DNA from: a virus
Taxonomy: Duplodnaviria; Heunggongvirae; Uroviricota; Caudoviricetes
DNA length: 35,532 nucleotides
Direction: 5' to 3' (one strand)
IMG/VR virus record: IMGVR_UViG_2703718856_000009
Location: 1-35,532 of that record
The number at the start of each line of letters is the position of its first letter. The first letter of the stretch is position 1. Position numbers and translations under genes: made by a program. A model generated the notes under the pieces. That model was not told the DNA's origin. It saw only the letters and a program-made list of their open reading frames with translations, and did no database searches. Positions 18,435-29,641 of this stretch are shown here, one piece after another.

Positions 18435-18785
18435 TTACTTCAGCCATTCACGGGCCGTCTTCGCCTTATGACACGGCCAACACAGGCTCTGTAGATTACT
18501 GTCGGCATCAGTGCCGCCACGCGCTTTAGGGATGATGTGGTCAACGGTTTTCGCCTCACGCACCACACCAGCACGCAGACATAACTGACACAGGCCTTTG
18601 TCACGCTTCAGGACACGCGCGCGGATACAGTCCCACTTCGAACCGTAGCCGCGCTGATGACGGGACTGGCCTGGCTTGTATTGCTTCCAGCCTTCGCTTT
18701 TGTGGCTTTCGCAATAGCCTGACGAGTCAGTGGTGGTATGGGAGCAGCCGCGAACACGGCAGGCTTTTGGGGTTCGTGGGGGCAT
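18435..18785 (-). CDS. HNH endonuclease (terminase-associated)
   Basis: 116-aa ORF with Cys pairs and HNH-like motif (..DHIIPKARGGTDADSNLQSLCWPCH..) next to the terminase genes. Confidence 0.85.
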   Translation of the reverse strand: MPPRTPKACRVRGCSHTTTDSSGYCESHKSEGWKQYKPGQSRHQRGYGSKWDCIRARVLKRDKGLCQLCLRAGVVREAKTVDHIIPKARGGTDADSNLQSLCWPCHKAKTAREWLK

Positions 18786-18880
18786 ATGTACTCCAATGAA
18801 GAAACCAGCGAAATAGCTGCCTTCATTCGTAGTAAACCTTTTTCATCAACGCAGTAATGGATTCTTTGAAGAGTCGCAAT

Positions 18881-18904
18881 CAATACGACTCACTAATGGG
18901 GAGG
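18881..18904 (+). promoter_or_regulatory. T7 RNAP promoter look-alike
   Basis: CAATACGACTCACTAATGGGGAGG: exact over the 14-nt core AATACGACTCACTA of the T7 consensus; the initiation region differs (TAAT for TATA). Confidence 0.4.
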
Positions 18905-18937
18905 CATGTCCAACGCGTTGGACGAGTTGCCTACTTG

Positions 18938-18960
18938 ATTTAGGTGACACTTTAGAAGGA
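18938..18960 (+). promoter_or_regulatory. SP6 RNAP promoter look-alike
   Basis: ATTTAGGTGACACTTTAGAAGGA: 20 of 21 identical to the SP6 consensus ATTTAGGTGACACTATAGAAG. Confidence 0.4.
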
Positions 18961-19006
18961 CAGAATGCCTTCCTCACTCAAATAACATCAATTAAGGAGG
19001 TTCAAC

Positions 19007-19129
19007 ATGCTTCGTTCCAAAAGTCAGTTGACTGTAATTATTACTACGTCACCTTATGCCGAAGACCTTTTCCGCTTCACTTTGAGCCTGATTCACTTCT
19101 ACCTGACCGGCTCGCCTCTATCCTTCTGA
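19007..19129 (+). CDS. Candidate 40-aa hydrophobic peptide behind a consensus RBS
   Basis: TAAGGAGGT at 18993-19001, 5 nt before the ATG; product MLRSKSQLTVIITTSPYAEDLFRFTLSLIHFYLTGSPLSF. Not in the ORF track (under 60 aa). Confidence 0.3.
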   Translation: MLRSKSQLTVIITTSPYAEDLFRFTLSLIHFYLTGSPLSF

Positions 19130-19352
19130 TCCCCGCTTTATCCAGATTGCACTGCCCTAGCGCCGACAACAGACTGACATTCAAATCTAGGCTACCCGCA
19201 TAAGTCAGCGGTTCAGAAATGGCTGGTTGCGGGGTTTCAGCGGTCAGACTCGCCGGTAACGGTATAGCCGGAACTGGCACGTAAACTGTCCGCGAACTTT
19301 CGCAACCGGTCAGCAGCGGCAGCAGGCACAGGGCGTACAGCACAATCATCAT
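19077..19352 (-). CDS. Rz1-like o-spanin (lipoprotein), overlapping Rz in another frame
   Basis: Internal start MMIVLYALCLLPLLTGC gives a signal peptide plus lipobox Cys, followed by a Pro-rich stretch. Confidence 0.55.
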   Translation of the reverse strand: MMIVLYALCLLPLLTGCESSRTVYVPVPAIPLPASLTAETPQPAISEPLTYAGSLDLNVSLLSALGQCNLDKAGIRRIEASRSGRSESGSK

Positions 19353-19629
19353 CCGCAACAGCCACTTTGATATCAGCCTGGGTTCTCTGTGACTCCAGTG
19401 CGATCTGTTGTTTTGCATGCTGGTTAGCCTCCAGAACTGTATTGACGATTTGTAGTGATTGCAGGACGTTATTGGTAATGGCTGTTGCTGATTCAGCATT
19501 TCGTACAGCCTCATCAGCACGTTTCTTTTCGTGCTGATATTTGCTGTAGTAGTGGTTAGCAGACCAGATGAAAGAACCGATGACAGTAAAGAAGAATGCA
19601 GAGATAGCCAGCTTATAGCTCAACTTCAT
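19237..19629 (-). CDS. Rz-like i-spanin
   Basis: 130-aa ORF with an N-terminal TM segment, directly after the endolysin gene. Confidence 0.75.
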   Translation of the reverse strand: MKLSYKLAISAFFFTVIGSFIWSANHYYSKYQHEKKRADEAVRNAESATAITNNVLQSLQIVNTVLEANQHAKQQIALESQRTQADIKVAVADDDCAVRPVPAAAADRLRKFADSLRASSGYTVTGESDR

Positions 19630-20780: not shown

Positions 20781-21866
20781 ATGAAAGAAAGCCGCAGCAA
20801 GGTCATTCAATATAAACGTGCAGTCATCCCTAATTGCACAGCAACGCTTCAACAGATCATAGAATCTATAATTTCTGAAAATGGCGCAGCCTATAAAGTT
20901 AGCGCAAGAAGAGAACAGATTAACCCCTCCGATAGCAATAGTGGATTTAGAGTGGTTAACCGCAGCAGCACTTTCAAGACAGTGTTATTCGGGCAACTTA
21001 TTTTGTTTGAACAAGGTAAAAGCCAAACACTTATGACAATCGCTGATGATGTCAATTATTATGACATCAATGCTATAACATCGAAGCAAATTAAATTAGC
21101 CGAAGACGAAAAAATAAGTGAAGCTGAAAAACAAAAAATAACACGAGAATTTATTGATTCAATACTTTACTTTGGGATTCGTGATAATCATGTGATGATC
21201 GTCCAATCACCGGCTCTAAGGACTAAAGACATAGAAAGCCATCTTAATTGGTTAATCCATTCATTTAGCACTATTTTTAATGGTGACGACTTCCTTGTGC
21301 TTCAAGATAAACCAACTGAAGACACCATAAAAAAAATGCATGAAAGTCCAGTCAAGAAAATAAATTTCGGCAGTATCCCAATCAAAAATTCTGATTCTGA
21401 AGATGTAGTTAAAATAAATAATATAAGTAACACAAACGACCTCCCCACAACAATAAAAGAACAGGTCGAAAAAGTTAAGAAAATAAAATTCATGCCAACT
21501 GGTAAAGGTGGCGATATTATAAAAGCTGCTTTTGGCGAAGCATGGTTTAATAATTTACAACTGGAAGATTCTCTTGATGAATCCAATTTACAAGTTAATC
21601 TAGAAATAACCTATTTCCGCAAGACAAACAAAGATGGTCAACGTGTACTCGATACTTTAGCAACTTCACTCAGAAATATAGACGATGAAGATATTAGTAT
21701 AAACCTTCAAGGTGGTGGCATAATTAAAGGCAGTGATTTAAAACTATCCGGTAAAGTAAACGTCCAATATAACAATGGACTTATTGATGAAAATGATTTA
21801 TATTTACAAATGCACAAATGGCTGACTTCAAAGGTTCAAACTGGAGAAGTAAAAGTTAAAAACTAG
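20781..21866 (+). CDS. Hypothetical 361-aa soluble protein (AT-rich cassette gene 1)
   Basis: Long ORF with RBS; Lys/Asn/Ile-rich; no family recognised by eye. Confidence 0.8.
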   Translation: MKESRSKVIQYKRAVIPNCTATLQQIIESIISENGAAYKVSARREQINPSDSNSGFRVVNRSSTFKTVLFGQLILFEQGKSQTLMTIADDVNYYDINAITSKQIKLAEDEKISEAEKQKITREFIDSILYFGIRDNHVMIVQSPALRTKDIESHLNWLIHSFSTIFNGDDFLVLQDKPTEDTIKKMHESPVKKINFGSIPIKNSDSEDVVKINNISNTNDLPTTIKEQVEKVKKIKFMPTGKGGDIIKAAFGEAWFNNLQLEDSLDESNLQVNLEITYFRKTNKDGQRVLDTLATSLRNIDDEDISINLQGGGIIKGSDLKLSGKVNVQYNNGLIDENDLYLQMHKWLTSKVQTGEVKVKN

Positions 21867-21884: not shown

Positions 21885-22397
21885 ATGAGCTTCTTTAAAT
21901 TTATTATAAGATTCTTATCCGCCTTCGCTTTTGGGTTTGCAATATTTTACTTTGCATCTAGAAAAATTGACTTAAGTGGCATATCTACTCCATGGTCATT
22001 AATAACCTTATTAGCATTCCCTTTCAGTTATTGTATCGCAGCCTTTTTTAAAGTTTCTGAAGCCGACGAAAACACATCACTATCAGATAATGAACTAAGA
22101 AGATTACGACCGATAATTGATGCAAAAAAAAGACATCTTGGATTTCTTATCTTTTTTTATCTTATTGCTGCTTTTTCAGGAGCAATTGGTATGTTCGCTA
22201 TTTCCAGAGAGTCGATAGTTTATCTATATTTTATATCTGCTTGTGGAGGAGGCATTGCTGCTGCAATGTATTCTTTTTTCTTTATCAGCTCAATAAACAG
22301 CGAAATACAGAGATTTAAAAGCATCTTATTACACAGAGCTGAAGCGAATAAAAAAACGAAAGAATTTATAGACTCATTAAACAAAAAGGCGGATTGA
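21885..22397 (+). CDS. Hypothetical 170-aa membrane protein, about four TM segments (cassette gene 2)
   Basis: AGGAGG RBS 7 nt before the ATG; four hydrophobic stretches (FIIRFLSAFAFGFAIFYFA, LITLLAFPFSYCIAAFF, LGFLIFFYLIAAFSGAIGMFAI, LYFISACGGGIAAAMYSFFFI). Confidence 0.8.
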   Translation: MSFFKFIIRFLSAFAFGFAIFYFASRKIDLSGISTPWSLITLLAFPFSYCIAAFFKVSEADENTSLSDNELRRLRPIIDAKKRHLGFLIFFYLIAAFSGAIGMFAISRESIVYLYFISACGGGIAAAMYSFFFISSINSEIQRFKSILLHRAEANKKTKEFIDSLNKKAD

Positions 22398-29235: not shown

Positions 29236-29641
29236 GATCCCATTCATTTTCGTCAAAATCATCAAAGTGATGAATTTGTGATCTCCAGTCTCGATAATCT
29301 AAAAATTTCTGGGCGGTTACGCTTATTTTATCAAGTGTGAGTTCATCCTGAATTGAAAGAAGAAGTTCATCAAATTTCATCTCATTAATCTGTTTTGGCA
29401 TCCAGTGATGCTTCATCAGAATAAGGTGAACCAGAGCCTTTTTCCCATTCAACTGATTATAGGGAGTGCCGAATTTCTTCCGGTGCTCATGTAAGACAAG
29501 GTCCAAAAGAGTAAGTAATGTTGCCCTTGATTCAACTTTGCTTATTTCGACTGATGACACTACCCCACTGATTTCAATGCCCCGATACTTTCCAACATTT
29601 TCACAGTGGGATTTGTACAGCGTATAGATATTACCGGACAT
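29207..29641 (-). CDS. Hypothetical 144-aa protein (AT-rich moron opposite to early-left transcription)
   Basis: AAGGA RBS 7-8 nt before the ATG (29639-29641); direct repeats GTTGTTGGGGA(A)TAAC twice (29657-29674, 29690-29708) in its upstream region. Confidence 0.6.
   Translation of the reverse strand: MSGNIYTLYKSHCENVGKYRGIEISGVVSSVEISKVESRATLLTLLDLVLHEHRKKFGTPYNQLNGKKALVHLILMKHHWMPKQINEMKFDELLLSIQDELTLDKISVTAQKFLDYRDWRSQIHHFDDFDENEWDPNLSAQYLK

Follow-up and report, generated by a model that had tools for sequence, protein, structure and literature searches.

In 2006, Chen and Schneider reportedly described "T7 islands," i.e., regions with tandem T7-like promoters in enterobacterial genomes, which were said to fall into 12 clusters. 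The islands are said to be 4 to 13 kb in size, to bear an integrase and direct repeats, to reside in tRNA or tmRNA genes, and to have been interpreted as satellite phages; two or three promoters spread over 150 to 620 bp reportedly drive two to five phage-related genes. To our knowledge, this observation was never followed up experimentally. Here, we describe a compact cassette with tandem promoters for phage RNA polymerases in a 35,532-nucleotide (nt) stretch of DNA (IMG/VR record IMGVR_UViG_2703718856_000009), which is called the window in the following and whose coordinates count from its first letter. The window represents an SfIV-like prophage, and the cassette begins in a noncoding gap of 291 nt between the start of an HNH endonuclease gene (18785) and the stop of the Rz1/LysC o-spanin gene (19077).

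Several other systems are relevant for comparison. Known prophage morons are expressed from host sigma-70 promoters while the phage is lysogenic. Small prophage exclusion proteins have been described, e.g., HK97 gp15, and abortive-infection systems acting on T7 comprise PifA of F, Rex, and others. Phage-triggered suicide cassettes have been engineered, such as the lactococcal phi31 promoter/LlaIR system of Klaenhammer and colleagues and T7-promoter-driven toxins. A literature search on prophage-borne T7 or SP6 promoters in defense retrieved nothing relevant.

In the window, the signals of this insert of 340 bp follow each other on one strand in the order Berlinvirus/T7-group promoter, SP6-group palindrome, SP6/K1E-group promoter, leader with a stem-loop at +1, ribosome-binding site, and a 40-codon gene (ORF40). 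This architecture suggests an accessory moron of SfIV-like temperate phages that imitates the late expression unit of virulent Autographiviridae and probably has an antiphage role, a reading to which we assign an even chance of being correct as a whole. The narrower claim of a genuine expression unit that responds to phage polymerases appears likely. We observed that the signals are identical with phage promoters and palindromes, that their variants match the phages of the respective hosts, that the insertion is present in some relatives and absent from others, and that the open reading frame is under selection. A first-pass annotation, which was based on the letters of the window, had reported about 290 bp of noncoding DNA in the late operon with an exact 14-nt T7 core, a palindrome, a site with 20 of 21 matches to SP6, a ribosome-binding site, and an open reading frame for 40 amino acids (aa); the gap and all of these elements were recovered at their reported places.

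The first promoter, CAATACGACTCACTAATGGGGAGG, is located at positions 18881 to 18904 on the plus strand, and the 14 nt AATACGACTCACTA within it match T7 exactly. Its segment from −17 to +6 (CAATACGACTCACTAATGGGGAG; 18881 to 18903, plus strand, predicted +1 at G18898) has the composition that we used to recognize T7-group (Studiervirinae) promoters, i.e., a length of 23 nt with an AT-rich part at −17 to −13, the specificity block CGACT at −12 to −8, CAC at −7 to −5, a TA-rich part at −4 to −1, and initiation at G. Weight matrices were built from the own promoters of SP6, K1E, a Vectrevirus, T7, and the Berlinviruses BP12A and Yepe2. On the Berlinvirus matrix, promoter 1 scores 35.3 bits, well within the range of the phages' own sites (21.1 to 38.8 bits, median 36.1), versus 24.8 bits on the T7 matrix, which is below T7's own minimum of 27.5. 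The motif "CACTAATGGG" represents the Berlinvirus consensus, and 27 of 28 positions agree with the promoter of the tail fiber gene (phi17) of BP12A, PhiV-1, CarlSpitteler, and S523, phages with 9 to 11 promoter-1-like sites per genome. The real promoters of BP12A and Yepe2 ruled out the interpretation of promoter 1 as a degraded T7 promoter. The original designation as a T7-like look-alike was slightly inaccurate and understated the quality of the site, and promoter 1 is classified as a predicted Berlinvirus-type promoter of a single-subunit RNA polymerase (T7 specificity group, Studiervirinae). Most relatives of the cassette have an exchange of G to A at −11 of promoter 1, a position that is important for T7-type specificity, and the −11A variant is used by Berlinvirus phages themselves (Yepe2 and BP12A, in some of their own promoters). 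A laboratory-evolved T7 (mutant clone MZ375262) carries TAATACAACTCACTATAGGGAGA, with the same G-to-A change at −11, at two promoters (370 and 25695).

The second promoter contains ATTTAGGTGACACTTTAGAAG at 18938 to 18958, which shares 20 of 21 positions with SP6; no other site in the window comes within three mismatches, and shuffled sequences contained none. The segment from −17 to +6 (ATTTAGGTGACACTTTAGAAGGA; 18938 to 18960, plus strand, predicted +1 at G18955) shows a single change, at −3. Promoters of the SP6 group (Molineuxvirinae) were defined by the consensus ATTTAGGTGACACTATAGAAG for SP6 or ATTTACTGGACACTATAGAAG for K1E/K1-5, with a specificity block at about −12 to −8, and promoter 2 falls into this group. 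It scores 31.4 bits on the SP6 matrix, compared with 22.2 to 35.9 bits for SP6's own sites, and is assigned as a putative SP6-type (Molineuxvirinae) promoter. The commonest version of promoter 2 among the relatives, ATTTACTGGACACTATAGAAGGA, is the exact K1E/K1-5 consensus, reaches 36.9 bits on the K1E matrix (K1E's own sites, 26.9 to 37.7), and is present in 8 to 10 copies in each Vectrevirus genome. The exact 20-mer of the K1E promoter was found in IMG/VR only in Vectrevirus-type phage contigs of about 44 kb and in the cassette. A further variant of promoter 2, ATTTAATGGACACTATAGAGGGA, is the own promoter of no phage in our collection.

The two promoters start 57 bp apart on the same strand, and both matches are far beyond chance. 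That such a tandem is very unlikely to arise accidentally had been proposed from the first inspection, and the scores of 35.3 and 31.4 bits versus 16 bits for the next best site in the window bear this out. In 1.95 Mb of related prophage DNA searched on both strands, all sites of at least 18 bits fall inside the cassette. Upstream of the HNH gene in 59 loci from other genera, no promoter site of at least 14 bits was detected with the five matrices; in these loci, the slot is tight or holds unrelated inserts. The only other site above 12 bits in the window, CCATTCAACTGATTATAGGGAGT at 29445 to 29467 (plus strand; 16.1 bits on the T7 matrix), probably arose by chance.

The palindrome between the promoters, CCAACGCGTTGG, extends to the 16-nt GTCCAACGCGTTGGAC at 18908 to 18923 (plus strand) and ends 14 nt 5′ of promoter 2. 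It forms the core of a hairpin at 18901 to 18930 (plus strand) that corresponds to about +4 to +33 of a promoter 1 transcript; an inverted-repeat finder with a 9-nt seed missed it since the arms comprise only 7 to 8 nt. GTC(C/T)AAC-NN-GTTGGAC is present nine times in the SP6 genome, GTCTCAC-NN-GTGAGAC eight times in K1E and a Vectrevirus, and the SP6-type palindrome seven times in the Klebsiella SP6-like phage FBKp16; this element is characteristic of the SP6 group. In these SP6-like phages, the copies (GTCYMAC-NN-GTKRGAC, seven to nine per genome) are intergenic, often show extended flanking complementarity, and often lie directly 5′ of a promoter or ribosome-binding site; the difference between the SP6 and K1E stems consists of compensatory changes. 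A generic prophage terminator or operator was rejected as an explanation of the palindrome, because a U-run is missing and the sequence is identical to the multicopy element of SP6, K1E, and FBKp16.

Both the SP6 and the K1E versions of the palindrome occur in cassettes. The window combines an SP6-type palindrome with the SP6-type promoter 2, many relatives combine a K1E-type palindrome with a K1E-type promoter 2, and hybrids of an SP6-type palindrome and a K1E-type promoter were also found. Upstream of SP6 gp20 and K1E gp18, one palindrome copy is located 14 to 15 nt 5′ of the promoter, and the corresponding spacing in the cassettes is 13 to 14 nt; the alignment of palindrome, spacer, and promoter with these upstream regions has a z-score of about 12. 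The extended palindrome hairpin is 95% paired among 15 cassette variants, with three pairs altered on both sides, and the value for this hairpin and the +1 hairpin of promoter 2 together is 96.5%. Two copies in IMG/VR (L111 and L132) are broken by foreign DNA. In one of them, the break lies within the palindrome and promoter 1 is lost; in the other one, it lies just after +4 of promoter 2, and the leader and the open reading frame are lost.

The leader of promoter 2 opens with the stem-loop GAAGG acagaatg CCTTC (18955 to 18972, plus strand), which starts exactly at the predicted +1. Its five pairs are retained in all 15 variants, and two of them vary only to G-U. Hairpins at +1 likewise open the capsid gene leaders of K1E and SP6 and the phi9, phi10, and phi17 leaders of Berlinviruses; in general, the late leaders of Berlinvirus, SP6, and K1E consist of a stem-loop at +1 with a strong Shine-Dalgarno sequence at the end. 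The cassette has the consensus Shine-Dalgarno sequence TAAGGAGGT at 18993 to 19001 (plus strand), which is separated from the ATG by 5 nt (TCAAC, 19002 to 19006). Columns 116 to 125 (TAAGGAGGTT) and 127 to 132 (AACATG) of the alignment A2 are invariant, and the intervening base is C or A.

ORF40 (MLRSKSQLTVIITTSPYAEDLFRFTLSLIHFYLTGSPLSF; 19007 to 19129, plus strand, ATG at 19007) comprises 40 codons, and its last 53 nt are antisense to the 3′ end of the Rz1/LysC gene. All 105 complete loci have it intact and with exactly 40 codons, they encode 19 peptide variants, and the position of the stop is fixed although the codon alternates between TGA and TAA. Among 26 nucleotide haplotypes, and counted without regard to phylogeny, codons 21 to 41 show 9 synonymous versus 2 nonsynonymous changes, whereas the same stretch read in the Rz1 frame shows 0 synonymous and 10 nonsynonymous changes, and other frames are similarly poor. 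The C-terminal half of ORF40 is therefore constrained as a protein, i.e., purifying selection acts on it in this frame and in no other. The C-terminal end of the SfIV Rz1 (…IEASRSGRSESGSK) is merely a readout of the strand opposite to the inserted ORF40. Codons 2 to 20 show the opposite pattern, with 3 synonymous versus 26 nonsynonymous changes in the 26 haplotypes, and this hypervariability of the N-terminal half suggests diversifying selection, with the same reservation about phylogeny.

AlphaFold2 predicts helices at residues 2 to 14 and 18 to 34 of the ORF40 product with a predicted local distance difference test score of 81. The peptide had initially been described as hydrophobic, which proved to be overstated: the grand average of hydropathy is 0.45 and the best 19-aa Kyte-Doolittle window reaches 0.90, while common variants have a best 19-aa mean of 1.4 to 1.5, compared with the usual cutoff of 1.6. 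No family match was found in Pfam, PHROG, NCBIfam, and PADLOC. A homologue search returned only 40-aa E. coli proteins, a tblastn search against phage genomes revealed no copy in virulent phages, and the conserved part had no exact match in a collection of species-representative genomes. Rfam contained no RNA family with a match to the cassette at an E value of ≤1, and neither this search nor a simple scan for promoters on the opposite strand indicated an antisense RNA antitoxin partner, although an RNA of an undescribed type may have escaped both.

The cassette is widespread and polymorphic. The 451-nt interval 18786 to 19236 is 100% identical to Shigella phage SfIV (NC_022749, 38899 to 39349) and also 100% identical to a prophage of E. 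coli CFSAN061762. SfIV, a complete temperate phage, has a genome of 39,758 bp that includes genes for structural proteins, lysis, and immunity, and the region is not mentioned in its genome paper (PMC3851460). The cassette region was detected in 630 of 5,426 complete E. coli genomes (ca. 12%) with 84 to 98%, mostly 84 to 88%, identity, and an exact search with the ribosome-binding-site region retrieved 94 prophage stretches from IMG/VR; the 289-nt core region exists in 39 distinct versions. A comparison with related prophages, which the first-pass annotation had recommended, thus revealed an identical copy in SfIV and diverged copies in E. coli prophages. In the sister phage SfV, the Rz1 stop and the HNH start are separated by only 26 nt versus 291 nt here, so the cassette represents an insertion of about 300 nt. 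The Rz1 C terminus of SfV (fetched stretch, 409 to 436) differs from that of SfIV. In every locus with sufficient flanking sequence, the cassette occupies the same slot between the divergent HNH gene and the convergent end of the lysis cassette. The left part of the accessory insert (18786 to 18880, plus strand) is conserved in the cassette alignment and has no counterpart in SfV; on the minus strand, the same positions represent the spacer and 5′ untranslated region of the HNH gene. By all sequence comparisons, the cassette is a natural accessory insert and not vector DNA.

A version of the cassette that occupies the same slot in the same orientation is also present in temperate phages of Klebsiella, i.e., Kp4864-1, Kp4856-1, and related IMG/VR contigs. 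It consists of one or two copies of the promoter (T)AATAGTGGCGAG(T/G)ATAGAA, an SP6-type palindrome, a +1 hairpin, a Shine-Dalgarno sequence, and an open reading frame of 38 codons that ends in the same motif, …LSL(I/A)H(F/Y)YLTG(S/Y)PLSF. The promoter, TAATAGTGGCGAGTATAGAAG, is the own promoter of Klebsiella Molineuxvirinae, more than 20 of which carry this type at seven to eight places per genome (eight sites are listed in FBKp16). The Klebsiella cassette is regarded as an independent replicate whose promoter is matched to Klebsiella phages. Its open reading frames look more hydrophobic by eye than the E. coli versions. An extra upstream hairpin (CTTGTCTCTTATGAGAGACAAG-like) and a T7-group-like site, ATTAAGACTCACTATTAGGAAGG, were also noticed in the Klebsiella cassette (L155, 1205 to 1275; L159/L161). 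No phage in the collection has multiple copies of ATTAAGACTCACTATTAGGAAGG for its own use, and its closest relatives are the phiOR promoters of Berlinviruses (24 of 27 positions).

The genomic neighborhood provides the context for the direction of transcription. The divergent left neighbor is the HNH endonuclease gene of the packaging module (18435 to 18785, minus strand; Pfam HNH, E = 4e−16), which is also annotated in SfIV and E. coli CFSAN061762 and borders the cassette at every locus with sufficient flank; the small and large terminase genes are located on this side. The convergent right neighbor is the Rz1/LysC o-spanin gene (19077 to 19352, minus strand; a RefSeq lysC lies at the equivalent coordinates), followed by Rz (19237 to 19629, minus strand) and, beyond it, endolysin and holin. 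All these neighboring genes are on the minus strand, and the cassette is hence read on the strand opposite to the late operon and faces away from the packaging and structural genes. Most E. coli carriers have a lambda-type lysis cassette in place of the SfIV-type genes, and ORF40 is followed there by a dead 3′ remnant of Rz1 and then, about 180 nt 3′ on the plus strand, by iss/bor. This lambda-type layout was seen at L007 (2840 to 3320) as well as L006, L008, L009, and L010, with the serum-survival gene iss as the bor homologue. Since iss lies on the same strand, transcripts of a phage polymerase would cover it, too. Neither the window nor the Klebsiella versions contain iss.

Further downstream, two AT-rich open reading frames on the plus strand (20781 to 21866, 361 aa; 21885 to 22397, 170 aa) are flanked by the genes for holin and Q. 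Their match is PHROG 3482, a family of unknown function, and Pfam, PADLOC, and NCBIfam yielded none. Relatives harbor a KAP-family NTPase gene or other hypothetical genes at this site, which looks like a variable slot for morons or defense genes; the two reading frames start 1.65 kb 3′ of the cassette on the same strand and are reachable by read-through transcripts. The sequence ATCTGTTGTTTTG at 19403 to 19415 (plus strand), 274 nt 3′ of the ORF40 stop, resembles the class II T7 pause/termination signal. As a class II T7 terminator, the ATCTGTT at 19403 was discarded, because the heptamer is found 10 times in the window versus 4.5 expected occurrences and is uninterpretable.

What, then, might the cassette do? 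A simple consensus scan, which is insensitive, detected no sigma-70-like promoter within 18786 to 19006; the same type of scan revealed neither an intrinsic terminator nor a sigma-70-like promoter in 18786 to 19236 and no promoter-like site on the opposite strand within the cassette. No gene for a single-subunit RNA polymerase is present among the annotated prophage genes. Because neither a sigma-70 promoter nor such a polymerase gene was detected, we predict no activity of the cassette in the lysogen, and ORF40 would thus not be expressed in the uninfected cell. Upon infection, the polymerase of a Berlinvirus/T7-type phage would transcribe the cassette from promoter 1 and that of an SP6/K1E-type phage would do so from promoter 2. 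The helical 40-aa protein would then be synthesized in large amounts, and transcripts would also run on into the downstream genes, i.e., into iss/bor in most relatives. The promoter specificity would accordingly serve as an infection sensor, with two promoters covering two phage families, and the outcome would be abortive infection, premature lysis, or exclusion, to the detriment of the invader. Damage to the invader is most likely the purpose, since in our view this is the only reading in which an invader-operated switch on a small conserved effector would benefit the carrier. More tentatively, and with what we estimate as somewhat less than an even chance, we propose in general that an infection sensor based on promoter mimicry exists in temperate phages of E. 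coli, Shigella, and Klebsiella and triggers abortive infection or exclusion via a small effector. Under this proposal, promoter, palindrome, and leader would have been copied from the virulent T7- and SP6-type phages that prey on the host, probably by recombination with the DNA of past attackers, and an arms race would have left its marks in the hypervariable N terminus of ORF40 and in the exchange of promoter types. The anatomy of a polymerase-triggered trap, which was the initial idea, draws strong comparative support from the promoter classes, the palindrome, the leader, the Klebsiella version, and the selection on ORF40, whereas a membrane-active toxin and a protective effect on the cell are conjectural; the hydrophobicity is modest.

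Several points weigh against an antiphage trap. The product of ORF40 has no clear transmembrane segment (best 19-aa hydropathy of 0.9 to 1.5) and no similarity to a known toxin or defense protein in the searched families. A terminator was not seen 3′ of ORF40, and the intended product could be located further downstream. The promoter variants with the −11 G-to-A exchange, CTCGCTA, and GACAGT may be weakened, and the shutoff of the host and degradation of its DNA by the infecting phage could limit expression from a single chromosomal copy. In addition, the counts of synonymous and nonsynonymous changes leave phylogeny out of consideration, and the relatives were fetched with a pattern that contained the ribosome-binding site and the ATG, which makes the conservation in this part of the alignment partly circular.

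Among the alternatives, exploitation of the invader's polymerase for the prophage's own benefit survives best, although we consider it unlikely. In this satellite-like scenario, which comes near to the one reportedly put forward for the T7 islands, the polymerase would serve to overexpress downstream cargo, to silence the lysis genes by antisense RNA, or to prime replication locally. Transcription from the cassette would indeed run antisense into Rz1, Rz, endolysin, and holin, the missing terminator after ORF40 would allow it to reach iss/bor in most carriers or the two plus-strand genes of unknown function 1.65 kb downstream in the window, and tandem promoters with a fairly AT-rich stretch resemble the primary origin of T7. 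However, the sole downstream element that is constant in E. coli and Klebsiella is a small open reading frame with a perfect ribosome-binding site and a signature of selection, and iss as a potential cargo is missing in the window and in Klebsiella. Moreover, the two promoters serve different polymerases and would not form a true tandem pair in any single infection, unlike the T7 origin, and the cassette is directed away from the packaging and structural genes.

A neutral recombination scar, i.e., functionless regulatory DNA captured from a virulent phage that hitchhikes with the HNH/terminase module, is still more doubtful. The alignment of the palindrome and promoter 2 with the region upstream of gp18/gp20, mosaic variants such as an SP6-type palindrome beside a K1E-type promoter, the broken copies, and the constant company of the HNH gene would all be expected from such a scar. 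It would hardly account for the signals of two phage families that are assembled in one orientation before a single reading frame with an optimal ribosome-binding site, for the integrity of this frame in all 105 loci and the synonymous excess in its conserved half, or for hairpin pairing that was kept through compensatory changes. Klebsiella prophages, moreover, hold an equivalent cassette with a different, host-matched promoter, and the gene itself lacks a counterpart in any virulent phage genome.

An ordinary lysogenic-conversion moron that is expressed by the host polymerase or by read-through and carries the phage-type promoters as relics is improbable. The slot between lysis and packaging genes is a classic moron site (lambda bor, iss here, and other inserts elsewhere), and a host promoter might have escaped the simple scan; yet none was detected upstream of ORF40, and near-consensus promoters that track the phage promoter classes across hosts are unexpected for relics. 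Finally, an origin from vector DNA, from an engineered construct, or from a chimeric assembly had been considered at first; a pair of T7 and SP6 promoters is a common feature of cloning vectors, and the palindrome has a MluI site. Such an origin is refuted by the identity with the independently sequenced phage SfIV and with E. coli CFSAN061762, the naturally diverged copies in 630 complete genomes, the fixed slot between phage genes, the tandem arrangement of the promoters, which do not converge on a cloning site, and promoter sequences that fit natural Berlinvirus, SP6, and K1E versions instead of vector versions.

If the antiphage reading is correct, the cassette would represent a natural immune trigger that is gated by the virus's own polymerase and needs no sensor protein. 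The defense principle would be viral transcriptional specificity instead of a host sensor protein that recognizes a viral protein or nucleic acid. It would add to the known antiphage strategies and be invisible to protein-based defense finders, as exemplified by the lack of matches in PADLOC, Pfam, and PHROGs. It could also explain strain differences in the susceptibility to T7-like and K1E/K1-5/SP6-like phages, which are therapy candidates for E. coli K1 and Klebsiella, and in laboratory strains with the cassette, any supply of T7 or SP6 polymerase would lead to the synthesis of an additional small protein. The cassette would furthermore document that regulatory DNA has passed from virulent into temperate phages.

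In comparison with known systems, the finding revives the computational observation of the T7 islands. Both they and the present locus have tandem promoters for T7-type polymerases within an integrated enterobacterial element that encodes no such polymerase, and in both cases an infecting T7-like phage would switch the promoters on. The carrier here is, however, a complete 39.8-kb temperate phage and not an island of 4 to 13 kb, and the two promoters, which are 57 bp apart, belong to two specificity families, enclose an SP6-group palindrome, and precede a single 40-codon gene. This distinction refers to the islands as they were reportedly described, and the locus may itself be among the 12 clusters. 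The late units of Autographiviridae resemble the cassette in their signals, with matching promoters (27 of 28 positions, and an exact 23-mer for the K1E type), a palindrome 13 to 15 nt before the promoter, and a leader that opens with a +1 hairpin and is followed by a strong Shine-Dalgarno sequence. In contrast to them, the cassette is present as a single copy in an unrelated temperate phage with an HK97-like head and a contractile tail, joins the signals of two subfamilies, a combination that no virulent genome shows, and contains a gene without a homologue in virulent phages.

Like prophage morons, e.g., lambda bor and iss, the cassette is a small autonomous unit between late genes that occupies the same slot and is absent from SfV. 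It differs from them in that neither a host promoter nor a terminator was detected and only promoters for foreign phage polymerases are present, so its expression should be conditional on infection. With type I toxin-antitoxin and abortive-infection systems, it shares a small, partly hydrophobic candidate effector and the expected death or block of the infected cell, whereas an antitoxin partner (no Rfam match) and a clear transmembrane segment were not found, and the proposed control would be based on promoter recognition instead of RNA or protein stability. The T7/SP6 promoter pair of cloning vectors differs from the tandem arrangement, the nonvector promoter sequences, the phage gene flanks, and the polymorphism in hundreds of genomes that characterize the cassette. 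The engineered suicide cassettes follow the same logic, in that a promoter served only by the invader drives an effector borne by the host; these systems are man-made, whereas the present cassette is natural, widespread, and of dual specificity.

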